Shown: positions 27,938-41,721 of the stretch, one piece after another
How the letters are laid out: each line of letters starts with the position of its first letter
How positions within the stretch are numbered: the stretch's first letter is position 1
IMG/VR virus record: IMGVR_UViG_3300032954_000016
Location: 1-55,166 of that record
DNA: 55,166 nt
Direction: 5' to 3' (one strand)
Source of the DNA: a virus
Lineage: Duplodnaviria; Caudoviricetes
The notes under the pieces: model-generated
Databases searched by the model: none
The model's input: only the letters and a program-made list of their open reading frames with translations
What the model was told of the DNA's origin: nothing
Program-made: the position numbers and the translations under genes

Positions 27938-27947
27938 TTCAGTCGGG

Positions 27948-27976
27948 CTTTATTTTTTGACGGAGCGCCCGGTCAA
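27948..27976 (-). promoter_or_regulatory. Putative late promoter TTGACC-N11-CAAAAAATA
   Basis: AT-rich intergenic region just before portal ATG; matches 16609-16637. Confidence 0.55.
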
Positions 27977-28005
27977 CCCTTTTTTCAAGTATTTTCGAGG
28001 GGAGA

Positions 28006-28034
28006 GGGGCCGGCCCCTGTTGGAGGCCGGCCCC
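28006..28034. terminator. Hairpin upstream of portal promoter
   Basis: GGGGCCGGCC / GGCCGGCCCC inverted repeat. Confidence 0.4.
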
Positions 28035-28110
28035 GGCGGCGGACCCGATTCGTGGCGTTAAATAAGGCGTCCTGTGTCGCCCCCAGCCGCGCCGCAATAC
28101 CGCATCGGGC

Positions 28111-29127
28111 TCAGTTGTGCGGAAGCCGCCGCCGCGGCTCCGTGATAGTCGGCTGGCAAATCGCGTCGAGCGCTTCGAGGAACCTGCGCTGCGCCGCCGG
28201 CCACCCGAAGCGGGCGCCGACTCGCGACGACTCGCCGGCGGTCGGCGGCTGTAGCCAACCGAGCGCGTGGGCGCGTGCGAAGTCCTCGAACTCGGTGAGG
28301 TCGGTGGCGTAGGTCACGAGGCGTCCGAACGACTGCTCGAACACCGGCAGGCGGTAGGCCACGACCGGCGTGCCGGCGCACAGCGCCTCGGCCACCACGT
28401 TGCCGAACGACTCGAACCGGCTCGGCATCAGGAACACGCGGCTGGCCTTGAGCAGCCGGAACTTCTCGGGCTCGGAGACGCTCAGGAGGTGGTGCGCGCC
28501 GGCCGCCGCGCAGGCCGCCAGCGCCGCGGGCTCCAGCCGCCCGACCACGACGGCGCGGAAACCGGGCACGCGCCTCTGGAGGTGGCGCAGCGTGGCGACC
28601 AGGTCCCCGGCCCTTCTGCCGATGCTGGCGCTTTGCACGTAGCCGGTCGCGTGGTACACGAGGTCGAACGCGCCCAACGGAATGCCGTCGGAGTCCAGCG
28701 GCGTGACTGACGAGGGCCATATCGTGCCAACGGTGGTCCAGTTAGTCACCACCTCGACGTGCAGTTGCGCGTGCAGCACGACCGACTGATCGACGTTGGT
28801 TGACGGCTCGATGTTCGTAGGTTGCGCTTGTATGCTGGCGGCCGCACACAGCGTGGCGGCTATCAACAGGTATTTCATTGTGTTCATGGTTTTTTTTCCT
28901 TTCTCGGCCCGCGCCGCCTTGGCGGCCGCGCCGGGTGTGTCGGGCTGCTTCTTCTCCTTGGGCTCAGGCGCGCCCTCCTCGTGGCGGCCGCACCACTCGG
29001 TCGCGTGCACCGGCGGCCGGCCCCGGCCCTTGTCGTGGAACAGCACCGGCGGGTTGAACCAGCACTCGCCCTTCGGCTCGCCCGGATGCGGACGGTAGTG
29101 GCGGCAGGTGGAGCAGGTCGCGGTCAT
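28111..29127 (-). CDS. Chimeric ORF: Cys-rich N-terminus + signal-peptide segment + C-terminal half of a GT4/GT-B glycosyltransferase
   Basis: CSTCRHY..GECWFNPP..WCGRH; MKYLLIAATLCAAASIQA; VFLMPSRFESFGNVVAEALCAGTPVVAY (EX7E motif). Confidence 0.65.
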   Translation of the reverse strand: MTATCSTCRHYRPHPGEPKGECWFNPPVLFHDKGRGRPPVHATEWCGRHEEGAPEPKEKKQPDTPGAAAKAARAEKGKKTMNTMKYLLIAATLCAAASIQAQPTNIEPSTNVDQSVVLHAQLHVEVVTNWTTVGTIWPSSVTPLDSDGIPLGAFDLVYHATGYVQSASIGRRAGDLVATLRHLQRRVPGFRAVVVGRLEPAALAACAAAGAHHLLSVSEPEKFRLLKASRVFLMPSRFESFGNVVAEALCAGTPVVAYRLPVFEQSFGRLVTYATDLTEFEDFARAHALGWLQPPTAGESSRVGARFGWPAAQRRFLEALDAICQPTITEPRRRLPHN

Positions 29128-29312
29128 GATTTCCTTCTTTTCTCAGGCCGCACGCGCCGGCGGCCGCGGCCGTTGCCGAGGTAGCGCCCGACCGGCGAGT
29201 AGGGCGCGTCGCTCCAGTTGGCGCACGCGCCCTTGGCCTTCTCGACCTGCGGCGCGATCTGCGCCCGCAGCTCCGCGACCCGGCGCCGCATGGCCTTGGC
29301 GGAGGCGGTCAT
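29124..29312 (-). CDS. Small basic hypothetical protein
   Basis: ATG downstream of promoter 29363-29391; ATGA-coupled to next gene. Confidence 0.5.
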   Translation of the reverse strand: MTASAKAMRRRVAELRAQIAPQVEKAKGACANWSDAPYSPVGRYLGNGRGRRRVRPEKRRKS

Positions 29313-29362
29313 CAGAGGTCGTTGTGATTCATGTGTCGGTTCTTGGTCTCAGGTCGCGGCGG

Positions 29363-29391
29363 ATTGTAGCCGGGCACCGCCTCAGGGTCAA
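29363..29391 (-). promoter_or_regulatory. sigma70-type promoter TTGACC-17-TACAAT
   Basis: Identical hexamers and AAAAACGC upstream as at 45876 and 51653. Confidence 0.85.
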
Positions 29392-29398
29392 GCGTTTT

Positions 29399-29494
29399 TC
29401 ACCGGCGCTTTGCGCCGAAGAACACGATGCCGCACAATAGGCCGGCTCCGAAGCTGGCGACGACCAGCGCCGCGAGGTTCAACACAGTGTCCAT
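29399..29494 (-). CDS. 31-aa membrane peptide
   Basis: MDTVLNLAALVVASFGAGLLCGIVFFGAKRR with GAAAGGA RBS. Confidence 0.5.
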   Translation of the reverse strand: MDTVLNLAALVVASFGAGLLCGIVFFGAKRR

Positions 29495-29510
29495 GTCGTT
29501 CCTTTCTCAG

Positions 29511-30923
29511 TCACGTGACCCTCTCCACCTTGAACCGCTCGCCGGCCGAGAACCGCTCGGCGCCGCCGCCCGCCGACCGCAGCTCGCCCAATCCGGAGAA
29601 CGCGCCGGTGCCGGCATGGAGGTGGTCGAACAGGTAGCGCAGCGCGTCCATGCTGTGGTCGTTCTCCTTCTTGGGCGCGTCCTTGGCCGCCTTGTCGTTC
29701 CACACATAGGACTCGAACTCATTGACATGGTCCACGCAGGACGGGTCGGTCGAGTAGCGCGCCCTGCCGTCGCCGGCCACCTTGAGAGCGTTGCGCACCA
29801 GGTCGCAGCCGTCCAGCACCCGCCCCTTGGCGCCGATCGCGTAGACGCCGGCGTTGTTCAGGTCGGCGATGAGGCCGGCCGCCGCCTCGTCCACGACCGC
29901 GACCTCGCACCTCGTCTCGGCCGGCGGCAGCACGGTGACACCCTCGCCGTCGGGCGGCAAGGCGGCGTAACCGGCCGGGTTCTGGAACCAAAGCCGGGCG
30001 CGAGCGACCACGTCGGCCTGGAGCACGCCGCGCCGGAAGAAGCACCGGAAGCAGTGCAGGCGGCCGTCCCCGTCGGCACCGACCAGCAGGACCACCGCCG
30101 GGTTGGTGTAGCCCTCGTCCAACGCCAGGAACCAGCGCCGCATCTCCTTGTGGTCGCGGACCCGGACGTGCGGGCCGCCGGGCGTCGAGTCGAAGTTGTC
30201 GTACACGGCGCCCTCGGCCGTGGCCCACTGGCCCTCCAGCAGCCTCTTGCGGCGCACGCCGGTCAGGGTGGACTCCAGCAGCCCGATGCGCCGCCGGCCC
30301 TCGGCGGTGATGTTCCCGGCGTCGTCGTAAAGCGCCGGGTTGTCCTTGTGGGTCGACAGCAGCCGCGTCAGCGAGGCCCGGCTCCGAATCCAGTGGCTCG
30401 CGCCGGCCGGGTTGCAGTCGCCGAACACCTGCGGCCACGCCACCACCGCGCCGCGGCCGGTCACGCGGCCGGCGACCATCTCCCACTCGGCCTCGGTGAG
30501 CTGCTCGGCCTGAACCATGTGCGCGAAGTCCCACTCGCTGGAGAGCAGCTTGTCGGCCTTGTCCAGCCCGGCGCACACCAGCTCCGACCCATTCGGGAAC
30601 ACCCACTTCTCGGTGAACTTCTCGCCGCCGTACCGCTTGATGGGCAGGCCGGCGGTGATGGTGTTGAAGGTCCGGGCGCACGAGTCGTTGATGGAGTTGA
30701 ACAGCTTGCGCACCATGATGCCGTGCGCCTTGGGGCGCCTGGCGTCAGAGCAGAGCAGGAAGTCCTTGACGCATCCGGCCCACGTTTTGGAGGTGTCCGA
30801 CGGGCCGCAGAGGATGGCCTCGTGGTCGTGGCAGGTCAGGAGCTGGAGCGAGCCGCCGCGGAACTTGGGGAGCTCCACCGTGACGGTGCGCGCCCGCTTC
30901 GGCTTGGCGGTCAGCTTCGTCAC
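29511..30923 (-). CDS. terL: Terminase large subunit (PBSX-like)
   Basis: GPSDTSKT Walker A variant, GDCNP coupling motif, LEGQW..AEGAVY, LDEGYTNP and DHSMDALRY nuclease motifs; GTG start coupled to terS. Confidence 0.92.
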   Translation of the reverse strand: MTKLTAKPKRARTVTVELPKFRGGSLQLLTCHDHEAILCGPSDTSKTWAGCVKDFLLCSDARRPKAHGIMVRKLFNSINDSCARTFNTITAGLPIKRYGGEKFTEKWVFPNGSELVCAGLDKADKLLSSEWDFAHMVQAEQLTEAEWEMVAGRVTGRGAVVAWPQVFGDCNPAGASHWIRSRASLTRLLSTHKDNPALYDDAGNITAEGRRRIGLLESTLTGVRRKRLLEGQWATAEGAVYDNFDSTPGGPHVRVRDHKEMRRWFLALDEGYTNPAVVLLVGADGDGRLHCFRCFFRRGVLQADVVARARLWFQNPAGYAALPPDGEGVTVLPPAETRCEVAVVDEAAAGLIADLNNAGVYAIGAKGRVLDGCDLVRNALKVAGDGRARYSTDPSCVDHVNEFESYVWNDKAAKDAPKKENDHSMDALRYLFDHLHAGTGAFSGLGELRSAGGGAERFSAGERFKVERVT

Positions 30924-31462
30924 TTGGCCGGCGCCGGGCCGGTCACGGCCTCGGGGTCGACGCTGGACTTGACCACCACCATCAGCGGGCCGCCGCCCTC
31001 GCCGACCAGCTCCTGCCGCTCGCGCCACTCGTCCGGCTGCCGGTTCTTGAGCCAGAAGATGCACGCCGTGGTGTCCGGCGGGTAGTGCTTGACGATGTCG
31101 GTCTTGATGATGCGACCCTCGTACGACTTGATGTCCACGTCGGGATGGCTGTACCCGGTGGCGCGCTGGTAGAGCGACTTGATGACGGCCTCGTCCGCCT
31201 CCCGTTTTCCGAGCTTTAAGGCTTTGCCAACTTCGGGGTGGCGGTGGCGAAGATTGAACACAGCGATGCCGCTTATCCCGAACGCCTCGCCTATCTGCGC
31301 ATCGGTCGCGCCGAGCCTCGCCAATACCTTGGCGATCCGCAGCCGGTCCAGCTTCACCGGTTTGCGCCCGCCGCCTTCGCCCTGGCGGCCGCGCTTAACC
31401 TTGCCGGTGCGCTTGGAGACGGTGCTCGGCTTGCGGGGTTTTCGGCGGCGGGTCGCGCTCAT
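30920..31462 (-). CDS. terS: Terminase small subunit
   Basis: HTH + SLYQRATGY...KHYPPDTTACIFWLKNR signature; directly upstream of TerL. Confidence 0.9.
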   Translation of the reverse strand: MSATRRRKPRKPSTVSKRTGKVKRGRQGEGGGRKPVKLDRLRIAKVLARLGATDAQIGEAFGISGIAVFNLRHRHPEVGKALKLGKREADEAVIKSLYQRATGYSHPDVDIKSYEGRIIKTDIVKHYPPDTTACIFWLKNRQPDEWRERQELVGEGGGPLMVVVKSSVDPEAVTGPAPAK

Positions 31463-31470
31463 CTGACGGG

Positions 31471-31499
31471 GGTATAGCCGGTCGCCGGTTGAATGTCAA
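31471..31499 (-). promoter_or_regulatory. Promoter TTGACA-17-TATACC upstream of terS (near-leaderless)
   Basis: Perfect -35; -10 ends 8 nt before ATG. Confidence 0.6.
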
Positions 31500-32002
31500 C
31501 GCTTTTCCGGCGACGTCGCCGAACCGGCCGCTGCAGCGGACGCCGAGGCGCCGCTGAGCTTGTTGTTCGGCGGATACAGTTCCACCGGCTCCACACCCTC
31601 GCGCAGAGGCTTCGCCCGCTCGAACACGCACTGAATGTCAGACTCCGCCAGTATGCGCCCGACTTCCATTTTGACCGCGCAGTATCCGAAGCGGTGGAGC
31701 GTCGCGTATTCTGTTGGCGTGAACCAGCGGCGGAGTTGTTCCAGCGTGCGGCAGCCGCAGCCGAGATTCATGCCGACGATAGAGAGGCGCAGCACGTTTC
31801 CAAATTGCATCGGCCACGGGACGAGAGCGGCGTATTCTTCCTCCGGTTTGTCCTCGACCCACCGTTGCGAGAACCCTGGTTTCCACGGGCCTCGACCCGC
31901 GGCGTCTTGCACTCGATACACAATCGCCGAACAAGGCGCTGGAGCGAATGAGTGCCCCGCCACGCTGTTTGGCAATTCGGGAGTCTGGGATGGGGCACTC
32001 AT
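31496..32002 (-). CDS. Cassette 1 hypothetical protein
   Basis: Starts inside attC2 and reads through attC1; VYRVQDAAGRGPW motif. Confidence 0.75.
   Translation of the reverse strand: MSAPSQTPELPNSVAGHSFAPAPCSAIVYRVQDAAGRGPWKPGFSQRWVEDKPEEEYAALVPWPMQFGNVLRLSIVGMNLGCGCRTLEQLRRWFTPTEYATLHRFGYCAVKMEVGRILAESDIQCVFERAKPLREGVEPVELYPPNNKLSGASASAAAAGSATSPEKR
31518..31571 (+). repeat. attC-like site 1 (54 bp, terminal/backbone site)
   Basis: GCCGAAC cggcc GCTGCAGCGG..CCGCTGAGC ttgtt GTTCGGC. Confidence 0.85.
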
Positions 32003-32023
32003 CGCTCAGCTTGGTCGTTAGGC
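31926..32023 (+). repeat. attC-like site 2
   Basis: GCCGAAC aaggc GCTGGAGCG..CGCTCAGC ttggtc GTTAGGC. Confidence 0.9.
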
Positions 32024-32241
32024 TACAAGGCATCCTCGCCACCGGGCAGCATGTCCGATTCGATGGTTGGGAAGTTGAGTTTGTCCAGGACGCGATTCAC
32101 GTCCTCCTTTTTTCCGCCGGTCAGTTCGCGGATGATTTTGAAGCATTCATCGAGTGCTTCTTGGGCGTCTCCGAGGTTTTCGATTCCTTCCATTCGGAAT
32201 CGGCCATCCTCGCCGACGATATGATTTAGTGATCCAGCCAT
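32023..32241 (-). CDS. Cassette 2 hypothetical protein
   Basis: ORF fills the interval between attC2 and attC3. Confidence 0.7.
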   Translation of the reverse strand: MAGSLNHIVGEDGRFRMEGIENLGDAQEALDECFKIIRELTGGKKEDVNRVLDKLNFPTIESDMLPGGEDAL

Positions 32242-32249
32242 AAGTTGTA

Positions 32250-32339
32250 GCCTAACCCGGCGCTGGAGAGAACGCCGGGATTGCGTTTCAGTGTTATTCG
32301 ACGCCGCTCTCCCCGGCGTCTCTCAGCTTTGCGTTAGAC
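32250..32339 (+). repeat. attC-like site 3
   Basis: GCCTAAC ccggc GCTGGAGAG..CTCTCAGC tttgc GTTAGAC. Confidence 0.9.
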
Positions 32340-32558
32340 AGCTTTGGGAATCTCAGCTTGTTCCAATTTGTAAATGTGTTTTTGAAGCTCGTAGGTCACA
32401 TCAATTCCTACGCCTTGGGTTTTAACTGCCGGTGCTGTATGGAGAACGCACATAAAGTTGTCCATGACTTCGACCTTCGCGGCTAGTACTTCGTTCTGGT
32501 GGCGCAGAGCACGTATCTCGTTCTGCGCTTCCTTGAGCGTTTCAATCAGTTCGTTCAT
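32334..32558 (-). CDS. Cassette 3 coiled-coil protein
   Basis: Stop TAA lies in attC3 core. Confidence 0.7.
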   Translation of the reverse strand: MNELIETLKEAQNEIRALRHQNEVLAAKVEVMDNFMCVLHTAPAVKTQGVGIDVTYELQKHIYKLEQAEIPKAV

Positions 32559-32562
32559 AGCT

Positions 32563-32654
32563 GTCTAACCAATCAGTGCAGCGAATGGCGCGGAGTCGCT
32601 GCGGGTTCAATTCGGTTGGTCAGCGATGCGCCATCGCTGACTTCTGCGTTAGGA
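32563..32654 (+). repeat. attC-like site 4
   Basis: GTCTAAC caatc AGTGCAGCG..CGCTGACT tctgc GTTAGGA. Confidence 0.9.
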
Positions 32655-32669
32655 CCACCAGTCATCGTC

Positions 32670-32999
32670 CTAGTCGCCATGCTCCGATACAGGGCCTCCA
32701 TCATCCTGCGTCTCGACCTTGTCCGCGATCTGTGGCAGGTCGAAGCGGCTCACCGGTTCATTGCGATAGCGTTGGAGCATTCCGAGCGCGATTTCCTCCG
32801 TCACTGGGTTGATGCTGTAGATTGCTCCCGGCCCATAGAAGCGGGTATATGCCTTGTTCTCGGCCTGGGCCGGCACGTCCACGCGCAGGAACGCACCGCC
32901 GGCGAGTGTGGCCTCACTCACCTTGCCCACGATCTTCTGGTGGCCGAACAGTTCGACCAGTGCCCATTCATTGAAGCTGCTTCCGTTGTCTTTGCTCAT
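32670..32999 (-). CDS. Cassette 4 conserved phage-type protein
   Basis: EWALVELFGHQKIVGKVSE...FLRVDVP...GAIYSINP motif. Confidence 0.8.
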   Translation of the reverse strand: MSKDNGSSFNEWALVELFGHQKIVGKVSEATLAGGAFLRVDVPAQAENKAYTRFYGPGAIYSINPVTEEIALGMLQRYRNEPVSRFDLPQIADKVETQDDGGPVSEHGD

Positions 33000-33003
33000 A
33001 AGG

Positions 33004-33127
33004 TCCTAACAAGCGGATGCACACGAACAGCCGCCCCGCTTGGCAGTTCGGGCGCATCAGGTTTTACTATGGTTTCGGGGCTTTCAAAGTCTCGGTCGGC
33101 GGCTGTCGGTGATCCGCAGCGTTAAGC
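33004..33127 (+). repeat. attC-like site 5
   Basis: TCCTAAC aagcg GATGCAC..GTGATC cgcagc GTTAAGC. Confidence 0.85.
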
Positions 33128-33421
33128 GGCTAAATATGATGCCACTTCCTTTCCTTCGGTTGTCAGTTCCCATGCCCAGCCATATCGCTTCGTGGCCAGC
33201 CCTTTATTTTGTAGGGCGTAAAAACTTTGCACGCTAGCGGGTTTATGGTCATCCCAAGCTTGGCATTGGGGGTAGTTGGTGGTGTGAGGCAGTCCCATCA
33301 TTTTGGCATCTTTTAGCCATCGGATAGCAGCCACCTGTCCAGCCGTTAGCCGCTTAACCACTCCATTCAGCGAACCGCGAGTGGCACTTTCGGTTTGTTC
33401 GGTAACGTATTTTACGCTCAT
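33122..33421 (-). CDS. Cassette 5 protein (winged-helix-like)
   Basis: Starts inside attC6; stop in attC5 core; ALQNKGL...WELTTEGK. Confidence 0.7.
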   Translation of the reverse strand: MSVKYVTEQTESATRGSLNGVVKRLTAGQVAAIRWLKDAKMMGLPHTTNYPQCQAWDDHKPASVQSFYALQNKGLATKRYGWAWELTTEGKEVASYLAA

Positions 33422-33459
33422 AGTTTTGTTATTCGCGGTCGCTGATGTCGGCGTTAGAA
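33352..33459 (+). repeat. attC-like site 6
   Basis: GCTTAAC cactc CATTCAGCG..CGCTGATG tcggc GTTAGAA. Confidence 0.88.
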
Positions 33460-33852
33460 CATTGAGTCATCGTCGTCATCGTCCAGGTCTGGCTCTTGCC
33501 AATCGTCCTCGTAGTTGTAGCGGCGACGATTGAAGTGCGCCCGGTCTTCGATGGCTTTCACGAGCGCCTTTTCTTCCGGCGTGCGTTCGCCTTCCGGTTT
33601 TTCGAGCACGTCGCGATGGCGATAGCGGATTCTTTCGAGTTTCGATTTGTCGTTGAGCGCGAGTTCGGCGTTCTCCTTCGCCACCTTGTATTGCTCGACT
33701 GCCTTGTCCGCGAGTCGCGCTGCTGTCTTGCGGAGTTCATCTACGGCTTCGGGTGTTGTCGCCGAGCTTGAGGACAGACACACCTCGAAGTGGCAGTAGT
33801 CATGTGAGCGCATCACTTTCACGCTTCCGATTTGGATGTCAGGAATTTGCAT
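33454..33852 (-). CDS. Cassette 6 hypothetical protein with acidic tail
   Basis: SVKVMRSHDYCHFEV motif; stop in attC6 core. Confidence 0.75.
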   Translation of the reverse strand: MQIPDIQIGSVKVMRSHDYCHFEVCLSSSSATTPEAVDELRKTAARLADKAVEQYKVAKENAELALNDKSKLERIRYRHRDVLEKPEGERTPEEKALVKAIEDRAHFNRRRYNYEDDWQEPDLDDDDDDSMF

Positions 33853-33858
33853 ACGATG

Positions 33859-33983
33859 TTCTAACAAATCGGTGCAGACCAACAGCCGCCGCCCTCGGCA
33901 TTGGCTGCACCATTGGTTGTTTGATTGGCGGTTTGCATTTCAAAGTTCACTTCCGGCGGCTGTGGCTGACCTCATCGTTAGGT
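33859..33983 (+). repeat. attC-like site 7
   Basis: TTCTAAC aaatc GGTGCAG..CTGACC tcatc GTTAGGT. Confidence 0.88.
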
Positions 33984-33985
33984 GC

Positions 33986-34138
33986 TTAAGGCTCCGAGCA
34001 TACGGTTTTCAATGCATCCCAAGCCGTAGTGCATCCTGGGATGTATTCCTGATTCCATAGCAGGAATATCCACAAAATCATTCCCGGCATCCAAAGTGGG
34101 AAGGCGGCTATAAACAAAACGAGTTTTATCATTTTCAT
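33986..34138 (-). CDS. Cassette 7 small membrane protein (50 aa)
   Basis: MKMIKLVLFIAAFPLWMPGMILWIFLLW; ATGA-coupled. Confidence 0.55.
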   Translation of the reverse strand: MKMIKLVLFIAAFPLWMPGMILWIFLLWNQEYIPGCTTAWDALKTVCSEP

Positions 34139-34380
34139 CTTGGTCCTTCGGTTGCGATTACTTCAGTCAAACACCACCACGCGAGCGGTTCTTCATCAGC
34201 GGCGTCGTGAGGTTTTTCACCCCAGGATTTCTTTTTACCCATAGCGACACGCGCCACATCCGCCGCCCACAAATAGCGTTCGGTCGAGCACCTAACAAAT
34301 CGCTGGACCGAATGGCTATTACGCCGGTCAGTTCCAACGCTGTCTTTGCGCTCAATCGTTTCTTGTTGCATCGTGCTCAT
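34135..34380 (-). CDS. Cassette 7 hypothetical protein
   Basis: Starts inside attC8. Confidence 0.6.
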   Translation of the reverse strand: MSTMQQETIERKDSVGTDRRNSHSVQRFVRCSTERYLWAADVARVAMGKKKSWGEKPHDAADEEPLAWWCLTEVIATEGPR

Positions 34381-34416
34381 TTTACGCACCCGCCATCGGT
34401 CAGTTTTCCGTTAGCT
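34290..34416 (+). repeat. attC-like site 8
   Basis: ACCTAAC aaatc GCTGGACCG..CGGTCAGT tttcc GTTAGCT. Confidence 0.88.
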
Positions 34417-34638
34417 GGCTTTGAGGCGTAGCTTACATTCATGGCACTTGAGAGCGTCTTGCATTGGTGTGACCCACTCGCCGCCGCCATCGTCTCCGCA
34501 TAGCGCGATGCCGTCCTTTACCGCATGGACTACTCGCCCCGCACGCAGGAATGTTGACGGGAGTAGCCAGCTAACAACGCGCTTCAGCGAACGGCCTTTG
34601 GCCGTTCTGCTTCGCGCTCGCCGCAATTTGGTTGTCAT
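34411..34638 (-). CDS. Cassette 8 small zinc-binding protein
   Basis: VVHAV..ALCG...CHEC; RBS and ATG inside attC9; stop in attC8 core. Confidence 0.7.
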   Translation of the reverse strand: MTTKLRRARSRTAKGRSLKRVVSWLLPSTFLRAGRVVHAVKDGIALCGDDGGGEWVTPMQDALKCHECKLRLKAS

Positions 34639-34689
34639 GGTTGCATTCCTTTCTCGTGCTCAGGCCGTCGCTGAGCTCGGTCGTTAGCC
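34569..34689 (+). repeat. attC-like site 9
   Basis: AGCTAAC aacgc GCTTCAGCG..CGCTGAGC tcggtc GTTAGCC. Confidence 0.9.
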
Positions 34690-35066
34690 GCGCCTCGCTC
34701 GCTGGCCCTCGCGGGGCCAGCGTCGGCGGCTTCGATGATTTGCACGATCCTTCGCCTACAATGTTTGTTTCCGTTAAATATGAATTTCGCACTTTCGAGC
34801 GCCATCGGGCTTGTAATATCTCTCCAATCCCAAGGAGCATCACCGAACATTTCGGCCCCGACTTGCACCACGAATGCCGCCGAATCGCTTTTCGGCGCGG
34901 CTAACGGCGAAGCTGCCAGCGCCTTGTTGCCGCTCGGCGCGGCTAACAAGTCGCTGGAGGCGGACATCGCCTGCGGCGACCCTTCAGGGAGCAAGCAACC
35001 ACATGAACCGCAGTAGTGCTGCTCCAACCTTGACGTTTCAAATCCGCATTGATTACATATTTTCAT
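34635..35066 (-). CDS. Cassette 9 protein with N-terminal zinc ribbon
   Basis: CNQCG..YCGSCG encoded within attC10; stop overlaps next ATG in attC9. Confidence 0.65.
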   Translation of the reverse strand: MKICNQCGFETSRLEQHYCGSCGCLLPEGSPQAMSASSDLLAAPSGNKALAASPLAAPKSDSAAFVVQVGAEMFGDAPWDWRDITSPMALESAKFIFNGNKHCRRRIVQIIEAADAGPARASERGAANDRAQRRPEHEKGMQP

Positions 35067-35107
35067 TGCTTGCTCCCTTCAGTTGCCGCTCAGCTTCGCC
35101 GTTAGCC
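34941..35107 (+). repeat. attC-like site 10 (long, 167 bp)
   Basis: GGCTAAC aagtc GCTGGAGGCGG..GGGAGCAAGCAA/TTGCTTGCTCCC..CCGCTCAGC ttcgcc GTTAGCC. Confidence 0.8.
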
Positions 35108-35241
35108 GCCTTGCGTTTGCGTTTCAGGGCGACTGTTGCTTTCTTCCAGTTTTCGCGGGCGGCGCGGCGCTTGGCCTCCGAGGTTGCCTTGCCACCGAGC
35201 CGTCCGAGAGTTTGCGCGGCCTTATTGACATGACCACTCAT
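35053..35241 (-). CDS. Cassette 10 small basic putative DNA-binding protein
   Basis: AAQTLGRLGGKATSEAKRRAAREN motif typical of small phage regulators. Confidence 0.7.
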   Translation of the reverse strand: MSGHVNKAAQTLGRLGGKATSEAKRRAARENWKKATVALKRKRKAANGEAERQLKGASNENM

Positions 35242-35425
35242 AGTCGGAGTCTTGTTTCTCGCCGCTCGCCAGCGCCTCGGCGATTTCGTGCGCGTCTTGG
35301 TCGGCGGCCACTATCATCCGGCTGCCATCGCCGCGGCGAATCGTTGTCTGGCCACCGCGCTCGCTCACCACATACTCGCTGTCATCCGTGTAGTATCCGT
35401 TTCCGCTTACTGTTACTTTTTTCAT
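35222..35425 (-). CDS. Cassette 10 hypothetical protein
   Basis: ATG downstream of cassette-internal promoter. Confidence 0.65.
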   Translation of the reverse strand: MKKVTVSGNGYYTDDSEYVVSERGGQTTIRRGDGSRMIVAADQDAHEIAEALASGEKQDSDYEWSCQ

Positions 35426-35474
35426 TTTCGTTTTTCGGCTCGGCTTACTGGGCCTCGCTCATCTTTCTGCGCTC

Positions 35475-35503
35475 AATATACCAAGCGGTTAGTATATCGT
35501 CAA
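35475..35503 (-). promoter_or_regulatory. Cassette-internal promoter TTGACG-17-TATATT with ATATAC/GTATAT inverted repeat
   Basis: Hexamers, spacer and palindrome seen directly; A-tracts upstream. Confidence 0.8.
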
Positions 35504-35561
35504 CATTTATTTTCACTTTTTTTGACCCTGTTTTATTGGGCTTTTTGATGATTTTGACGGC

Positions 35562-35694
35562 GGCTAACCCGGCGCTGCACAGAACTGGAGCTACGCTCCT
35601 CCAGTTGCGGCAGCGCCGGGTGCATCAATGCCAGTTTTGTAGTGGGACGCGAAATCACGATTTGCCGCTCCAGTCTGTGAGCTTGTCGTTAAGC
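35562..35694 (+). repeat. attC-like site 11
   Basis: GGCTAAC ccggc GCTGCACAG..CTGTGAGC ttgtc GTTAAGC. Confidence 0.88.
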
Positions 35695-35997
35695 GATGCG
35701 TTCTAGTTCGAGCACCTTTTTTACAGTTGGTCGCCACCGCTTTTTAGACTTTGGTTTCGTCCACTCATGGTCATCCCCGTAACGCTCGAAATCGGCCTTT
35801 GAGATTTCGCCAAATGCCAGCACTTGATCTTCGCAGGCTGCATGAAGGAGTATGTCATCGCCGCCGCCCACGTCCTGACAGACGCCGATTACACCTATGT
35901 CGCAAATGATTTCGTAAAACTTCGGACGGCATCGCTTAACAACTCCATGCAGGCGACGTGGAGAACAGCTTCGGGTTTGCGTTGGTTTCGATTTCAT
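35689..35997 (-). CDS. Cassette 11 hypothetical protein
   Basis: Starts inside attC12; stop in attC11 core. Confidence 0.7.
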   Translation of the reverse strand: MKSKPTQTRSCSPRRLHGVVKRCRPKFYEIICDIGVIGVCQDVGGGDDILLHAACEDQVLAFGEISKADFERYGDDHEWTKPKSKKRWRPTVKKVLELERIA

Positions 35998-36054
35998 ATT
36001 TACAGTTTTGGTTGTGCCGAGTCAGGTGACACGCGCCTGATGTCGGCGTTCGGC
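35934..36054 (+). repeat. attC-like site 12
   Basis: GCTTAAC aactc CATGCAGGCG..CGCCTGATG tcggc GTTCGGC. Confidence 0.88.
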
Positions 36055-36257
36055 AACAGGTGCATTTCGTGCCGCCCAAAGATGTCCACGAACCACGCTT
36101 CACGGTGGCCGAATGGTCCGTTTGGTCCGGTGCAGTCGAGCGCCCTGCCACGCTCTGCCATCCTTTCCTCTGTTGTCAGTGTTGGCTTGTTGTTTGGCCA
36201 GCGTTGCCGAACCAATCGGTCCAGCGAACCCGGCGATTGCGTCTCAGTTGTATTCAT
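36000..36257 (-). CDS. Cassette 12 hypothetical protein
   Basis: MNTTETQSPGSLDRLVR starts inside attC13, ATGA-coupled. Confidence 0.6.
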   Translation of the reverse strand: MNTTETQSPGSLDRLVRQRWPNNKPTLTTEERMAERGRALDCTGPNGPFGHREAWFVDIFGRHEMHLLPNADIRRVSPDSAQPKL

Positions 36258-36296
36258 GGCGTTTTGGTCGCCGGGTCGCTGACCTCGGCGTTCGGC
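36206..36296 (+). repeat. attC-like site 13
   Basis: GCCGAAC caatc GGTCCAGCG..CGCTGACC tcggc GTTCGGC. Confidence 0.9.
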
Positions 36297-36847
36297 TTCT
36301 GGAACACGATCCAATGTGATTTGAAGTGCTTCCCGTAGCGGCTGCCGTAGAGCGGCTTTTCGGGAGTTAGCGCGAGGATTTCTTTCACGCTCACCTCGTC
36401 CTCGTTCCACTTGAAAACCAGCGTGCCATTCGGCCGCAGGACGCGGAAGCATTCAGCGAATCCTTTGGCGATCATTTCGCGCCAGTTGCCCCGGAGCACT
36501 CCATACTTTTTTAGTATCCAGCTCGTGTCGCCGTTCCGCTGGATGTGTGGCGGGTCGAAGATGACGTGCCAAAAGTGATTGTCTGGGAATGGCAGCGCCG
36601 TAAAGTCGGCCACGATGTCAGGATTGACCACGATTTCGCGCTCACCGTTTTTTACCGAGCAGTCAGCGGCCAGATGAGTTTCGCGGCGGATGTCCACGAA
36701 CAGCGCACGCGGGTCTTTGCGGTCGAACCAGAACATCCGGCTTCCACAAGCGGCGTCCAGCACAGAAGCCGAACAAGGCGCTGCACCCGCAATGACTGCC
36801 GCGGCGGGCGGTTCAGGCGAGGCGATAGATTTTGACGCGGCAGTCAT
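36254..36847 (-). CDS. Cassette 13 SAM-dependent (probable DNA) methyltransferase
   Basis: VLDAACGSRMFWF SAM motif, ADFTALPF, FDPPH catalytic-type motif, ECFRVL. Confidence 0.85.
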   Translation of the reverse strand: MTAASKSIASPEPPAAAVIAGAAPCSASVLDAACGSRMFWFDRKDPRALFVDIRRETHLAADCSVKNGEREIVVNPDIVADFTALPFPDNHFWHVIFDPPHIQRNGDTSWILKKYGVLRGNWREMIAKGFAECFRVLRPNGTLVFKWNEDEVSVKEILALTPEKPLYGSRYGKHFKSHWIVFQKPNAEVSDPATKTP

Positions 36848-36868
36848 GGGGTGAGCTTGTCGTTCGGC
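36768..36868 (+). repeat. attC-like site 14
   Basis: GCCGAAC aaggc GCTGCACCC..GGGTGAGC ttgtc GTTCGGC. Confidence 0.88.
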
Positions 36869-37059
36869 GCCGTCACTGGTGGTTGAGGTTGACCAGCGAG
36901 AAGAACTCGGCCCGGGTGGCCGGCGTCCCACGACACCGCCCCGTCGCGGCTCGCGTGCCTTCCGGGGTGCCCGGCTGCGAGCCCGCAGCGGACGGGCGCA
37001 GCGCCGGCCGGCACCGGCGCCAAACTCCCGCAGCGATTGATGATTCGTTCGGCTCTCAC
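36844..37059 (-). CDS. Backbone hypothetical protein reading into attC14
   Basis: GTG start; ends APNDKLTP with stop overlapping cassette 13 ATG. Confidence 0.5.
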   Translation of the reverse strand: MRAERIINRCGSLAPVPAGAAPVRCGLAAGHPGRHASRDGAVSWDAGHPGRVLLAGQPQPPVTAPNDKLTP

Positions 37060-37340
37060 GCGAACAGCTCCGGCTGCGGCTTGTGCCAGTTGGCCAGCCT
37101 CTCGAACGACAGCACGGTCTCGCCCTTGCGCCGGCCGCCCCTCCTGCGCACGTGCAGCCCGTCGCGGCGCAGCTCGAACACGTGCAGCTTGAGGACCGGC
37201 TCGTGCGCCGTCGGGCTGACCGCCGGCGAGCCGACGTCGACCGCCTTGACGACCCGGCCGCGCACCCGGTCGGCCGGCCTGCGCCACTGGTCGCGGGGCT
37301 TGATGGTGGCGAACGGCTTGCGCTTGGCGGTCTTGTTCAT
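37056..37340 (-). CDS. Basic hypothetical protein
   Basis: ATGA-coupled to methyltransferase gene. Confidence 0.6.
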   Translation of the reverse strand: MNKTAKRKPFATIKPRDQWRRPADRVRGRVVKAVDVGSPAVSPTAHEPVLKLHVFELRRDGLHVRRRGGRRKGETVLSFERLANWHKPQPELFA

Positions 37341-38518
37341 GGTTTGGGCGATGTACAGTCGGCTTTGTGCTGGCCAAGGCCAGCATATCGGTCAATCCAC
37401 TTTTGATCGAGCTGTCCTTTAGCTGATGGTTTCGGGGGCGGCGCGGCGGCTGCCGGTGTCGGTTTGGGCGGCTTTGGAGCCTTGGACCGGGCCGTTGGGG
37501 CGGCGACCAGCACCGGCGCGTCCTGCGCCAACGTAGGCGTTTTGGCCTTTAAAATACAGTCCCACTCCGGCTGGAGCGGCTTCAGACAATGCGGGCTGAA
37601 CCAGATCCGCTCCCGGGCTGAGTTTTCGCTGTTTCCTGCGGCGGCAGCGTATCCGCCGCTCGCTTTCCATGCAACACAATCCCACTCTTGAGGCATTTGA
37701 TGCTCTCCTTCGTACCCGCAGAGAGCTATTCGCAACAGCGGATTAGTTCCGTTTTCAACCGCCCACTGTTTGACTTTGTCTGAAACTCCGCGAGAGAAGT
37801 CTCCATACACATCATCGTGTCCGTCGGCATCGTAGGGCGGGTCCAAGAGAATGCCTGTCAGCCCTTGACCGAACGTCGCAGCCTTCGTAAGTACACGCGA
37901 CCAATCGCCGCAGCATACTTTGGTATGGCGCATCCGTTCAGCAATCGCCCGGAACCAAGCAACTATATTTTCAGTGTTACTTTCCGAGCCACCCCCTGAC
38001 CACCCGTCAGGTGCGGAACTTGCCGAATCAGCCACCCCCTGACCACCCGTCAGGTGCGGAACTTTCCGAGCCACCCCCTGACCACCCGTCAGGTGCGGTG
38101 CTGAATTTTGTTCCGTCGGATGACAAAAGTTGTCACCAATCCAACATGAGACCCCCCACATCCACCAGCCGGCTATTTTCGTGTCGTAGTAGTCGGGGTC
38201 GTTCTCCATTCGCTTGCGGAACTCCAACCGCTTGTGAAGCCACCGATGCCTGGCGTGTAAATCCGCCTCGTTAATTGGCCAGTCAGCGTGGAGTGCAGTT
38301 TCCTCCGGGGCGAACTTCATCGCACGCCAAGTATTAGCCACATAGCAATCAATATCATTCACAATCTCATTTTTGGGCTTGTGTGGTCGCCGTAGCAGCA
38401 CCGCCAACGAGCCAGCGAACGGTTCGACATAATTACCAACGTCGCCGAGCCGGGACCATATAAGGTCTGCGGCTCGTGACTTTCCCCCAAACCAGACAAA
38501 TGGCGTTTTCAGTTCCAT
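37337..38518 (-). CDS. DNA adenine methyltransferase (D12/Dam class)
   Basis: PFVWFGGKS, YVEPFAGS, NDID, LDPPY motifs. Confidence 0.9.
   Translation of the reverse strand: MELKTPFVWFGGKSRAADLIWSRLGDVGNYVEPFAGSLAVLLRRPHKPKNEIVNDIDCYVANTWRAMKFAPEETALHADWPINEADLHARHRWLHKRLEFRKRMENDPDYYDTKIAGWWMWGVSCWIGDNFCHPTEQNSAPHLTGGQGVARKVPHLTGGQGVADSASSAPDGWSGGGSESNTENIVAWFRAIAERMRHTKVCCGDWSRVLTKAATFGQGLTGILLDPPYDADGHDDVYGDFSRGVSDKVKQWAVENGTNPLLRIALCGYEGEHQMPQEWDCVAWKASGGYAAAAGNSENSARERIWFSPHCLKPLQPEWDCILKAKTPTLAQDAPVLVAAPTARSKAPKPPKPTPAAAAPPPKPSAKGQLDQKWIDRYAGLGQHKADCTSPKP
37988..38098. repeat. Three copies of 29-bp GCCACCCCCTGACCACCCGTCAGGTGCGG inside the MTase gene
   Basis: Copies at 37988, 38031, 38070. 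Confidence 0.9.
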
Positions 38519-39108
38519 CAGGCCAGCGCCTTCAACTCCTTGACCTGTTCAGCGGTCAACGGTGCCGGTTCGCCCCGATTGAATCCGCCTGTTCCTGAAT
38601 CAATGTTGACCGAGATTGTGATTTGGGATGACTTGATGCCTTTGGCTGCAAGGATTTTTGCGGCGTCCTGCTTGCTGATGCCCTCCTTGCCCATCCTGCG
38701 AAGCACAGCCCCAATTGAATATCCGAACACCTTTCCAGTGACGCGACCGTTAGCACTGGCTGTTGGTTTTGTGGCTCGCGTCTTCTTGACCTTGTCGGCC
38801 TTCGGCTTCACCTTGGTTTTCTTGCTTTTGTTTTTTTTGCTCATGGTTTGTCTCTCCTCGGCGGTCAGTGGTCCGGTTAGTCTGCTGGCGTCGGCCGCCG
38901 GGAACGCCAACAAGTCCTTGAGCCGCTGCGCGAGCTGGGGCTCGGTCAGCGGCGGCTTGTCTATCAACAAGAAGTCGTTTATGCTCGCGGGCATGACGGT
39001 CGTCGCGTAGTCCGCGGTCTTGGCGATCCTGGCCAGCCCGTCCTCCACGTGGAAGACGACCTGCGCCATCCCGCCCCACATGATGCAGTCTCCGGGTCTC
39101 AGTGTCAT
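38518..39108 (-). CDS. Hypothetical protein with Lys-rich/DNA-binding-like C-terminal half
   Basis: TGATG-coupled to MTase; an internal start MSKKNK with GGAG RBS is possible. Confidence 0.6.
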   Translation of the reverse strand: MTLRPGDCIMWGGMAQVVFHVEDGLARIAKTADYATTVMPASINDFLLIDKPPLTEPQLAQRLKDLLAFPAADASRLTGPLTAEERQTMSKKNKSKKTKVKPKADKVKKTRATKPTASANGRVTGKVFGYSIGAVLRRMGKEGISKQDAAKILAAKGIKSSQITISVNIDSGTGGFNRGEPAPLTAEQVKELKALA

Positions 39109-39445
39109 GTTCGGCTTTTGGTTGCGCTGCTTTTGGTTGAGGAACTCCCTGAGGCCGGCCGCCCCGCGCCACGGCGTCCCGCTCCGCGTGGCTGGCCACG
39201 CTCACCGGGTCGGCGCGCTTGGTGAATATCGCCGCCTCGCCGGTCAGCTTGTTCTCCACCGCCACGGTCTTGCGGGCCAGCGGCCAGCAGAGGGCGCGGG
39301 ACGATGTGGACTTCTCGACGATGTGCGGGCGCCCCTCGATGCTCAGGACGTCGCTGGGACGGAGGCGGACCAGGCCCAGCGTCGCGGCGCGGGCGTCGTG
39401 CTCGCGCTCCTCGGCGGCGGCCTCGTCGGACAGTGGCGGTCTCAT
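38750..39445 (-). CDS. Hypothetical protein (3' third overlaps next ORF; true end uncertain)
   Basis: ATG after promoter 39500-39528 and A/C-rich leader. Confidence 0.5.
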   Translation of the reverse strand: MRPPLSDEAAAEEREHDARAATLGLVRLRPSDVLSIEGRPHIVEKSTSSRALCWPLARKTVAVENKLTGEAAIFTKRADPVSVASHAERDAVARGGRPQGVPQPKAAQPKAEHDTETRRLHHVGRDGAGRLPRGGRAGQDRQDRGLRDDRHAREHKRLLVDRQAAADRAPARAAAQGLVGVPGGRRQQTNRTTDRRGETNHEQKKQKQENQGEAEGRQGQEDASHKTNSQC

Positions 39446-40140
39446 TTGGTTCTCGGTTTTCGGTCGTTGTCGCCGGACTCTTTTCCTACCGGCGGTGGAA
39501 GTGTAGCAGGGAGGCGGTTCTTGGTCAACTCCATTCTGAGGTAAATTTTCTGCACATCCACCCACCAGTTGGTATCGGCGGCGTACACGCGGTTGAGCGC
39601 GGCCAGGTAGGGGCCACGGCGGCCGCCCGCCGTCCAGGAGGACCAGGCGCGCTCGCAGAGCGCCAGGCACCTCTCCCGGGCGACGGGGGCCGGAAAGCCG
39701 ACCAGCCTGCCGTGGACGCGGTGCTCACACCCGTAGGGAAAGCGCACAGAGTGCTCGTGGACACGTATCGCTTCGCACAAAACAGGCCAGTCAAAATTGG
39801 TTTGCGCCGTAACGGAGATCGCGGCGATCAGCAAGGGCACGACGCCGGCTTTCAATAGGCGCGCCCGCCATTTGCGGCCGGCGTAGTAAGCCGACCACAG
39901 CTCGGGTCGGCCCATCGGCATCAGCGGACTCGGCGTATAAACGGAGTTGCGGAAAGCGTAGTCGCAGTCATTGCACATTCCGGCCGTCATCGTGGTCGCC
40001 TTGGGCATTTCCTCGGGCCTTATGGCGTCATCGCTGTTATATTCGGCGTCGCGCAGCGCGGCGAGCCTCGCTTGAACCCACTCCTCGTAGTTGCGCGAAT
40101 CGCTCCTCCATCCTGAACGGTTGAGGCTTCTCGCACTCAC
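39442..40140 (-). CDS. Protein with internal signal/TM segment and possible lysozyme-like C-terminal domain
   Basis: VVPLLIAAISVTA then LCEAIRVHE...PYG...RVYA..NWWVDV. Confidence 0.5.
   Translation of the reverse strand: MSARSLNRSGWRSDSRNYEEWVQARLAALRDAEYNSDDAIRPEEMPKATTMTAGMCNDCDYAFRNSVYTPSPLMPMGRPELWSAYYAGRKWRARLLKAGVVPLLIAAISVTAQTNFDWPVLCEAIRVHEHSVRFPYGCEHRVHGRLVGFPAPVARERCLALCERAWSSWTAGGRRGPYLAALNRVYAADTNWWVDVQKIYLRMELTKNRLPATLPPPVGKESGDNDRKPRTK
39500..39528 (-). promoter_or_regulatory. sigma70-type promoter TTGACC-17-TACACT
   Basis: Hexamers with 17-bp spacer. Confidence 0.7.
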
Positions 40141-40547
40141 AGCGTCAGCTCCTGCTGCGGGTCCTCGGCCCGGCCGCCGAGCCTGCGCACCAGCGCGGCG
40201 GCCAGCCCGCGCCGCTCCAGCGTGTAGGCGAAAATGGTCCGGCCGTTGGCGGCCGGCGCCTTCTCGCGGTCGGCGCGGCGGAAGGTCGCGGTGCGCCGGA
40301 TGATGCCGCCGGCCCGCTTCGAAGCCAGGAACCGGAACAGGCTCCCGACGCAGTTGCGGTCCGCGGCCGGAAGGTCGGCGTGGTCTATCTCGTCGGGGTA
40401 GAACTCGCCGGCCGCCAGCGCCCGGCTCAGGATGCGCACGCCGACCTTGGCGCAGCTCGGGTTCTTCCAGATGAGCTGGTTGACCAGCACGTCGTCCAGC
40501 GCCGCGTCGGTGGCCTTGGCGGCCATGCCCTGCTCGGTCATACTCAC
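40137..40547 (-). CDS. Hypothetical protein
   Basis: Coupled ORF ending QQELTL. Confidence 0.6.
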   Translation of the reverse strand: MSMTEQGMAAKATDAALDDVLVNQLIWKNPSCAKVGVRILSRALAAGEFYPDEIDHADLPAADRNCVGSLFRFLASKRAGGIIRRTATFRRADREKAPAANGRTIFAYTLERRGLAAALVRRLGGRAEDPQQELTL

Positions 40548-40834
40548 GACGACCACCTCCCGTTCGGGAACCGGTTGTGCTCCCCGGCGGCCGGAGCCGG
40601 CGCGGCCAGGACGCCGATGAGGTGCTTGTGCGCCTCCTTGGGCGCGTCGCACAGGTGGATGAGGTTGGCGGCCTTGGCGGCCGCGGCGGCCAGCGGCGAT
40701 CCCCAAGCCGCATCCTTGACCGCATTGACCAAGCGCAAGTGTGCCGCCTCGACGTGGCCCAGCCCGAGCAGCTCCGCCGCCCGGCGCAGCTCGGCCACCA
40801 TCTCGGCCTCGGTCAGTTTGGTGTCCGGTCTCAT
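40544..40834 (-). CDS. Hypothetical protein
   Basis: ATGA-coupled, GGAAAGG RBS. Confidence 0.6.
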   Translation of the reverse strand: MRPDTKLTEAEMVAELRRAAELLGLGHVEAAHLRLVNAVKDAAWGSPLAAAAAKAANLIHLCDAPKEAHKHLIGVLAAPAPAAGEHNRFPNGRWSS

Positions 40835-41721
40835 TGCTTTCCTTTCCCGTAGTTGTCGGAGAACCTGAGCAGCTCGGCGCGCATTAGCTCCTCGTCGGCG
40901 TGCGTCCGCTTCCACTCGTCCTGGTCGATGAGGTTGGTCACCGCTTTGGTCACCAGCGCGGCGAGCACCTTGGGCTCCAGCGCGTCCAGCTCCCACGACG
41001 AGGTGCCGAACCTGGCCACGTACGAGCCGGCCCGTGAGTCGGTCAGCTTGGCCGGGTTCTCCGGCGGCCCGTACTTCTCGACCTGGTCCATGTTCAGCGC
41101 CAGCCGCTTGACCTCGATGCCGCGGCCGGCCAGGAACAGCGCCAGCCGGTCGTCCACGTCCCGCGTCATGTCGATGCCCGAGGGGTCATGGTCGCCGAGG
41201 TACAGGATGAACAGGCCTTTGCCGTCCTCCTGCCGGCGCAGGTAGCGCTTGGACGCCTCGTACATGGCCGAGGACGACGAGTAGCCCTTGTTGGCGGTGA
41301 ACGGCACGTCCAGCTTGCGGCAGACCGGCTGAAGCACGCCCTCCAGCGCCTGCTTCTCGACCATCACCTCGACGTAGCTGGGCTGGTTGACCCAGTGGTC
41401 GATGCGGAACGAGTAGGCCGCGCTACGGACGATGTCGGCCGGCGAGTCCCAGTGGGGGTTGACCACGCACTCGCGCCCGCGGTCCTCGATGATGTCCCAG
41501 TCGATGAGCCCGGCGTAGCGGGCGTCGGACACCAGCCCGACGATGTTCTTGTAGCTGCGCTCGTTGTTGGGAATGACGGCGCGGCTCACGAGTTGGTAGT
41601 AGAGCTGCCGCACGGTCAGCTGAAAGCCGGCGGCCGCGTACTCGGCCAGGATGCCGGTGATGTGGTTGATCTTCGCCAGCGCCTCGGCGCCGAAGTTCTT
41701 CTCGATGAATTGTTCCTTCAT
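40831..41721 (-). CDS. Topoisomerase VI-A/Spo11-like wHTH + TOPRIM protein
   Basis: TVRQLYYQLV, VEVMVEK, KGYSS, YLGDHDPSG motifs. Confidence 0.85.
   Translation of the reverse strand: MKEQFIEKNFGAEALAKINHITGILAEYAAAGFQLTVRQLYYQLVSRAVIPNNERSYKNIVGLVSDARYAGLIDWDIIEDRGRECVVNPHWDSPADIVRSAAYSFRIDHWVNQPSYVEVMVEKQALEGVLQPVCRKLDVPFTANKGYSSSSAMYEASKRYLRRQEDGKGLFILYLGDHDPSGIDMTRDVDDRLALFLAGRGIEVKRLALNMDQVEKYGPPENPAKLTDSRAGSYVARFGTSSWELDALEPKVLAALVTKAVTNLIDQDEWKRTHADEELMRAELLRFSDNYGKGKQ

Follow-up and report, generated by a model that had tools for sequence, protein, structure and literature searches.

Outer flanks of a 14-site attC array on an integrase-less tailed-phage genome pair like the two ends of a single integron cassette

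Integrons are regarded as bacterial devices. How, then, did a run of 14 integron-type attC sites come to lie on the genome of a tailed phage in which no integron integrase (IntI) gene was found? We addressed this question in IMG/VR virus record IMGVR_UViG_3300032954_000016, which was analysed as a complete record of 55,166 bp; this whole stretch is called the window, and coordinates are window positions. The array occupies 5.35 kb (31518-36868) between the replication-side genes and a small terminase-like gene (terS), and the large terminase gene (terL) follows. We propose that an IntI acting in trans inserted the cassettes of this integrase-less phage into one attC of its backbone by attC × attC recombination, and we assign this reading a probability of roughly 0.6.

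Judged by sequence and predicted fold, the 14 repeats are genuine integron-type attC sites. Their alignment shows an R helix of 7 bp, a spacer that is left unpaired (5 nt on one side and 5-6 nt on the other), an L helix and a variable loop. Bulged bases lie at alignment columns 16 and 66, which correspond to top-strand positions 16 and 23; in attC sites, such extrahelical bases of the R''-L'' arm determine the choice of strand. The sites are 54-167 nt long, and the AAC and GTT of their outer boxes (R''/R' = RYYYAAC ... GTTRRRY) are invariant in all 14. Partner columns were paired in 92.0% of 300 cells compared with 69.9 ± 1.8% in shuffled alignments (0 of 500 shuffles reached the observed value), and shifting the partners by 1-3 columns left 26-40% paired. 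Both sides change in 15 of 22 pairs, and for helices 2 and 3 this holds for 12 of 15. These two helices are 96.9 and 92.3% paired, respectively; pairing of the R helix within a site amounts to 86.7%, in line with hybrid R' boxes. The top-strand base at position 16 is G in 11 sites, T in two and C in one, and such a predominance of G is atypical. A covariance model built on the alignment of the 14 window sites, which we termed R1, returned exactly these sites from the window with 52-85 bits, and the next best hits scored 15.0 and 13.8 bits. With 14 sites and no intI genome-wide, the region is a CALIN (cluster of attC lacking integron integrase) on a proposed backbone attC.

Site 1 (31518-31571, + strand), the proposed backbone attC, is 54 bp long, carries R'' GCCGAAC and R' GTTCGGC, and scored 52.3 bits on the + strand and 12.3 bits on the - strand. 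Folded as single-stranded DNA, it is predicted to give a textbook attC hairpin with an R stem of 8 bp, a 5/5 spacer that stays unpaired and two bulges of one base each (-21.4 kcal/mol, z -3.8). Its GC content of 0.74 is the highest among the 14 sites, also when only the arms are compared. The remaining sites follow on the same strand: site 2 (31926-32023, 76.7 bits), site 3 (32250-32339, 74.2 bits), site 4 (32563-32654, 70.6 bits), site 5 (33004-33127, 75.0 bits), site 6 (33352-33459, 76.5 bits), site 7 (33859-33983, 78.0 bits), site 8 (34290-34416, 79.4 bits), site 9 (34569-34689, 84.9 bits), site 10 (34941-35107, 63.0 bits), which has the longest loop, site 11 (35562-35694, 74.7 bits), site 12 (35934-36054, 71.9 bits), site 13 (36206-36296, 78.0 bits) and site 14 (36768-36868, 70.5 bits), the R' of which (GTTCGGC, 36862-36868) holds the last crossover point. 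Near site 10, we also observed a perfect 19-nt inverted copy of its right arm (35091-35109) at 34897-34915, 42 nt before the site. In the region 34897-34931, this inverted copy forms a 33-nt mini attC-like element on the - strand (19.9 bits), and it may be the scar of an abortive or top-strand recombination event.

To read the flanks of such an array, the polarity of its sites has to be known. The 14 sites scored 52-85 bits on the + strand and 8-15 bits on the - strand of the window. R1 hits located beside intI were always on the strand opposite to intI and read away from it: intI is on the + strand and seven full sites are on the - strand in bacterial genome G036, bacterial genome G024 has two loci with R1 arrays beside intI, and virus records G002 and G037 have intI on the + strand and 16 and 8 to 11 sites, respectively, on the - strand. 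Because these intI-bearing arrays calibrate the orientation of R1, we take the + strand of the window as the attC top strand, which would put every crossover point at a G|TT on the right-hand side of its site. The original prediction, made from the window sequence alone, had assumed this side of the sites, correctly so after the calibration. The opposite polarity, in which the top strand would be the - strand that carries the genes, had been suggested by stop codons located within the YYTAAC boxes; it was ruled out by the 8-15 bits on that strand and by the orientation of the arrays beside intI.

With the top strand on +, removal of the cassettes would leave the 54-bp site 1 joined to the right flank of the array. 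The left flank GACGTCGCCGAAC (31512-31524) and the reverse complement of the right flank GTTCGGCGCCGTC (36862-36874) match at 12 of 13 positions; a script returned the same count that the original prediction had given. Seven of the 12 matches belong to the shared R-box core, and beyond the core five of six positions match. There, the left backbone flank GACGTC (31512-31517, + strand) extends the R'' stem of site 1 and pairs with its partner, the right backbone flank GCCGTC (36869-36874, + strand). As a control, each R'' flank was scored against each R' flank within the array. The 13 true cassette-end pairs matched at 9, 12, 12, 9, 13, 11, 11, 11, 12, 11, 12, 10 and 12 of 13 positions, with contiguous runs of 8-13, and the non-cognate pairs (n = 168) matched at 6.9 positions on average and at 11 at most, so that the outer flanks exceed all 168 of them (0/168 reach 12). 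At least five of the six outer positions matched in 3 of the 168 non-cognate pairs, and for random backbone 6-mers the corresponding probability is P = 0.009. As far as sequence can tell, the two outer flanks of the array behave as the two ends of one cassette.

The site count and the edges of the array were examined as well. There are 14 attC for 13 cassettes, which is n + 1 sites per n cassettes. Removal of all 13 cassettes would join the site 1 body to TTCGGCGCCGTC and leave it 18 nt from a TTGACA-17-TATACC motif before terS. The GC-rich 54-bp attC that the original prediction had reconstructed upstream of the terS promoter agrees with the calibrated polarity and the coordinates. A search of 26000-44000 with R1 and the filters off showed no decayed attC beyond the array edges (best score outside the array, 13.8 bits), and because no decayed sites lie outside, the edges of the array are sharp. 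Site number, flank pairing, sharp edges and a site 1 that resembles the backbone in composition are all in keeping with insertion at a single backbone attC.

We picture the following course of events. The array would be bracketed by the two halves of one phage-backbone attC, the site 1 body on the left and TTCGGCGCCGTC on the right, and the cassettes most likely entered via attC × attC recombination at this backbone site. Entry may have been stepwise or in one block; the latter could have followed, for instance, from recombination of the phage into another array and its later exit together with neighbouring cassettes. The reaction would be carried out in trans by an integron integrase from the host or from a co-infecting phage that encodes one. 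The cassette genes lie on the - strand, point the same way as terS, terL and the remaining phage genes, and would be expressed by phage read-through and not from an integron promoter Pc. The growth of the array by attC × attC insertion, as originally suggested, agrees with the flanks and the site count. The analysis establishes the sites with their structure and polarity, the pairing of the flanks, the lack of an intI and the coding strand of three cassettes; the enzyme, the order of events and a continued activity of the backbone site are what we infer.

The window itself offers no enzyme: the 55,166-bp record gave no match to PF00589 or TIGR02249. The head of the array is an attC (site 1) that lies 18 nt from the promoter-like motif facing terS. 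The original prediction had called the phage integrase-less, which stands, and had seen no attI or Pc; the left array edge looks like an attC and not like an attI. Not anticipated was that related records do encode IntI. Virus record G002 (59,678 bp; 59.7 kb), in which terS and terL are each 50% identical to those of the window and several structural genes are held in common, encodes a 317-aa recombinase directly adjoining its array. This protein scored 230 bits on TIGR02249 (cut-off 265) versus 76 bits on XerC and aligned to VchIntIA (PDB 2a3v) with E 1.9e-36 over residues 45-302, a range that takes in the segment by which integron integrases differ from XerC/D. Approximately 35 bp (attI) separate the IntI start codon from the G|TTAGGA crossover. 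By its sequence, G002 appears to hold a complete integron on a phage-like contig (L096 1-1412, L098 11143-19557). The ends of this contig overlap via a triplicated small cassette, and both integron edges are still joined to phage genes within the contig. The triplicated cassette encodes a 50-aa membrane protein, the copies being 89-96% identical in amino acid sequence, and lies at the attI-proximal end (L096 1-460, L098 19558-19678).

A second virus record, G037 (52,184 bp, with terminal repeats), encodes an IntI that is 51% identical to the G002 enzyme and scored 231 bits beside its array (L205 5392-10972). Its terminase did not match the terL profile A1, which was built on the window terminase; of four large open reading frames (ORFs) compared with isolate phages for structural genes, three had no match and one had weak matches, and 10 ORFs of its array had no match among the PHROGs. 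Searches with Terminase_6N, Phage_capsid and Terminase_3 were uninformative for G037 because they found no match even in the window, and the viral status of this record is based on how IMG/VR and CheckV label it, on a DnaB-like match to the window and on one protein match to G002. The relatives of the G002 enzyme form 69 clusters (P0121-P0189) with 45-94% identity on contigs of up to 77 kb, many of them 30-77 kb long, and their sources name them only 'integrase'; the G037 enzyme belongs to one of them. Below these clusters, identity falls to at most 38%, and the proteins are named integron integrase by their sources. The four members of this clade that were scanned (G002, G037, P0123 and P0149; 51-100% identity) scored 219-237 bits on TIGR02249, under the curated NCBIfam cut-off of 265, and annotation pipelines would miss them. 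Virus record L208, which has a classical-type IntI (38% identical), contained no R1 site.

Bacterial enzymes were considered as well. The metagenome-assembled genome (MAG) G006, which contains a distant prophage relative, has seven scattered R1 sites, none of them near its terL, and an IntI above the cut-off is encoded in 5 of the 31 genomes made up of G006 and its 30 relatives. A host IntI, which the original prediction had named as the enzyme, is a possible source but not the sole candidate, since G002 and G037 encode their own IntI next to attI, and a G002-type IntI would be an equally good candidate. Because site 4 is identical to an attC of G002 at 75 of 92 bases, ungapped and with the loop included, although the two terL are 50% identical and the GC contents are 16 points apart, the two phages probably draw on a shared mobile cassette pool.

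The cassette genes added a second unanticipated feature, their orientation. Cassette 13 encodes a DNA methyltransferase (36254-36931, - strand; phrog_954, E 7.9e-70, residues 54-216; Methyltransf_11, E 5.5e-5), and the 5' end of this gene lies inside site 14, which under the calibrated polarity is the attC of its own cassette. Cassette 4 carries a gene with no assigned function (32670-32999, - strand; phrog_29525, E 8e-12), and the gene of cassette 1 (31496-31915, - strand; phrog_1106, E 4e-5; ORF list) reads through site 1 and stops in the backbone. Two small overlapping genes in cassette 10 (35053-35425, - strand; ORF list) stand behind a sigma-70-like promoter motif at 35503 to 35475 (TTGACG-17-TATATT, - strand), the only one returned by our scan. 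The product of one of them ends in a 'GGKA' tail rich in lysine and arginine, as does that of a small ORF in the first G037 cassette. Among all cassette ORFs of the window, 3 of 15 on the - strand and none of 5 on the + strand matched PHROGs; against Pfam, there was one weak match (FR47, E 0.047) in 14 - strand ORFs and none in six + strand ORFs. In a canonical cassette, a promoterless gene lies on the attC top strand with its attC downstream; all three homology-backed cassettes of the window have their gene on the - strand.

The same layout was found in two further arrays. In G002, four of six antisense ORFs matched known families (two N6_N4 methylases, Methyltransf_24 and PAPS reductase) compared with none of four sense ORFs. 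L105, a 13.7-kb metagenome contig whose terL is 54% identical to that of the window, harbours 10 or more sites on the upstream side of its terL, with no intI in between; here (1-3837), three of six antisense ORFs matched (two DNA methyltransferases and one family of unknown function) and none of four sense ORFs did. In the bacterial array of G036, by contrast, the family-matched cassette genes (DUF6572 and DUF899) are on the attC top strand, with matches for two of six top-strand ORFs versus none of three opposite-strand ORFs. Going by these matches and the R1 calibration, cassette genes are antisense to the attC top strand in three phage arrays (window, G002 and L105), the reverse of the bacterial array. 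The cassette genes of G002, and those of G037 as far as the gene layout indicates, are oriented like intI and point towards attI and intI. Because inversion of a block cannot change the polarity of a gene relative to its attC, this polarity is a property of each cassette, and one possibility is that antisense cassettes arise from phage genes next to a backbone attC. A 41-kb relative, G003 (terL 47%), has three to four weak divergent sites (20-27 bits) in a + strand gene block (L100 12908-16533). Its genes appear by eye to be sense to the sites, and a 46-nt hairpin (GGCTAAC...GTTAGCC) lies at 12908-12953.

Given complete integrons on related virus records, the array could instead be the remnant of a phage-borne integron (intI-attI-cassettes) that lost intI and attI. 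At the corresponding module junction, in front of terS and terL, G002 has 16 sites, an attI and an IntI, and G037 combines at least eight sites with IntI. A deletion of intI-attI, however, would not leave a complete attC with a left flank that is complementary to the distant right flank at 12 of 13 positions. Moreover, the distal flank of the G002 array (G|TTACCA...) continues a phage gene and is not attC-like, and the backbone-like GC content of site 1 does not fit such a descent either. We regard a decayed integron as an unlikely origin of the array.

The array could also have been acquired as a block without any IntI, by homologous or illegitimate recombination at short GTTRRRY-like repeats, in which case the complementarity of its flanks would be a coincidence. 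Such a route was proposed for phage CALINs with inverted GTTRRRY motifs at their edges in the sections used here of a survey of phage genomes (Qi et al. 2023, Front Microbiol 14:1091391; PMC9892861), and the R-box core GTTCGGC is present in several sites of the window array. Recombination at the core alone does not account for the five of six matches beyond it, which chance would supply in a fraction of approximately 0.009 of backbone 6-mers and which 3 of the 168 non-cognate pairs attained, none of these pairs reaching 12 of 13 overall. Nor does it account for the fourteenth site, which is a complete and well-folding attC. Taken together, we consider this origin improbable. That the repeats are other hairpins between small phage genes, such as terminators or regulatory stem-loops, would agree with the missing integrase, the antisense genes and the lack of a family match for most cassette proteins (one weak Pfam match in the 14 - strand ORFs), but is highly improbable given that R1 finds arrays directly beside intI at three loci in two bacterial genomes as well as in two virus records, that AAC and GTT are invariant in 14 of 14 sites with the spacer and bulge geometry of the aadA1 attC, and that a terminator scan returned 8 sites versus 10.5 expected.

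Several observations weigh against insertion at a backbone attC, the reading that we nevertheless prefer. The antisense orientation differs from that in bacterial arrays of the same attC type and is not what simple capture from a bacterial integron predicts. The compared arrays share no cassette genes, all cross-matches being attC sequence translated by chance, and the first rank of site 1 in GC content among 14 sites is weak on its own. The original prediction had called for relatives with a single empty attC before terS, and none was found, the closest terL relatives (73, 71 and 67% identity) lying outside the comparison of regions upstream of terS. Scans of viral contigs with terL peptides (window protein, P0002 and P0004) yielded only one contig of 4.5 kb, on which 333 bp precede terL. 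Relative L020 has in common with the window the Dam-like methylase described below, located upstream of terL; between methylase and terL, its best score was 8.8 bits with the filters off, and because L020 is without an attC-like site, a backbone attC is not a trait of the wider group. Finally, the single public run in which portions of this region occur showed no cassette movement. This wetland run contained 6% of the sampled words and, on short contigs only, parts of cassettes 2 and 6 at ≥99% identity, and its single low-likeness joint, with a 28-nt side, was uninformative on the empty site.

Among the matches listed, R1 sites occurred in 3 of 79 viral, 1 of 48 metagenome and 0 of 30 bacterial loci. 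The expected prophages of this family that end within host integron arrays did not turn up, as none of the 30 bacterial loci has an attC within 10 kb of its terL relative, these relatives being at most 51% identical. The related suggestion that the circular backbone is a giant cassette holds in the formal sense that, if the genome is circular, its ends pair as R'' and R' of one attC at 12 of 13 positions; integration of the phage into a host integron is speculative, with none of the 30 bacterial loci showing an attC within the 10 kb. In principle, the whole phage is topologically one giant cassette that an IntI could insert into another array or excise from it together with neighbouring cassettes.

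The backbone around the array is that of a tailed phage. The record has a 55-bp direct terminal repeat and a CheckV completeness of 100%, and it encodes a major head protein, a tail fibre protein, a DnaB-like helicase and a second helicase, which are all, like terL, on the - strand. The homologues of terL (29511-31064, - strand) are named phage terminase large subunit by their sources, and its best match among isolate phages is that of Thermobifida phage P1312 (33% identity). The small terminase-like gene (30920-31462, - strand) has an HTH_23 match, corresponds to the gene before terL in G002 and is directly downstream of the array on the - strand. The promoter-like motif TTGACA-17-TATACC (31471-31499, - strand) was read by eye 8 nt ahead of the terS ATG; our promoter scan did not return it because its rule demands T at the last position. 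A terS transcript that starts from this motif would be leaderless or nearly so.

GC content is 0.686 in the backbone and 0.56 in the array region. A second island of low GC content (0.52) at 9500-13500 spans a gene for a tail fibre (phrog_4201), extends over part of a 1085-aa ORF, has no attC and looks like an exchanged host-range module. Just to the right of the array, a Dam-like methyltransferase gene (PF02086) and a 196-aa ORF (37337-39108, GC 0.57) are likewise without attC. Homologues of this Dam-like methylase (46%) lie upstream of terL in six relative loci, all without any attC.

If the insertion at a backbone attC is correct, phages actively take up and exchange cassettes instead of carrying them by accident. 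The cassette contents suggest anti-restriction functions, the antisense layout would constitute a new wiring of the integron into the transcription unit of its host, and the finding bears on how cassettes originate. More tentatively, and with the odds somewhat against it, the records compared here may represent a phage-borne branch of integrons. Such a branch would consist of a divergent IntI clade on virus-like contigs of 30-60 kb and an antisense cassette pool that consists largely of DNA methyltransferase and other DNA modification genes, likely for counter-defence, and that is expressed, with no need of a Pc, by phage read-through in the direction of attI and intI; integrase-less phages would join it via a backbone attC.

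Apart from the survey of Qi et al., we found no paper on integron arrays in phage or viral genomes and no description of a phage-associated IntI clade, an antisense cassette polarity or a backbone attC rebuilt from flanks. In the parts of that survey drawn on here, 10,705 NCBI phage genomes yielded 17 CALINs, for each of which at least two attC were required, and a few complete integrons; methyltransferase cassettes in phage CALINs are described, acquisition through GTTRRRY-like repeats is suggested, and IntI1 recombined five of the six phage attC sites tested. Phage CALINs were reported only in 2023, as small arrays of unclear origin, and the window array is large and has flanks that indicate how it was built. 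It resembles the phage CALINs of those parts of the survey in its attC without intI, its DNA methyltransferase cassette and its inverted GTTRRRY-type edge motifs. The TJE1 CALIN, as presented there, has three attC and four ORFs in 'typical' orientation, whereas the window has 14 sites and antisense genes, and two features go beyond the published description in these sections, namely flanks that rebuild a backbone attC and related virus records that carry IntI.

According to the portions consulted of a preprint by Loot et al. (bioRxiv 10.1101/2022.09.11.507474), IntI can place cassettes in genomes without an integron platform. Double-stranded insertion at secondary sites of that kind would give n attC per n cassettes, and no attC would stand at the left edge, whereas the window has n + 1 sites and a full attC on the left. 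The bacterial chromosomal integrons of G036 and G024, which are relatives of MAG G006, are found by the same R1 model (34-64 bits), with intI divergent from the array. They differ from the window in that intI is present (395 bits on TIGR02249) and the cassette genes are on the attC top strand. VchIntIA (IntI4) is likewise comparable only through a relative, as it aligns to the G002 integrase and not to a window gene. At the level of the single site, the unpaired features of attC, as set out in the part of Nivina 2016 used here, have the same layout as the window sites. The attC of aadA1 on plasmid R100 (NC_002134) shares with them the R''-5 nt-L'' and L'-6 nt-R' arrangement and the extra bases at 16 and 23. 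Its extra top-strand base at 16 is C (G on the bottom strand) and its gene precedes the attC on the top strand, whereas in the window this base is mostly G.

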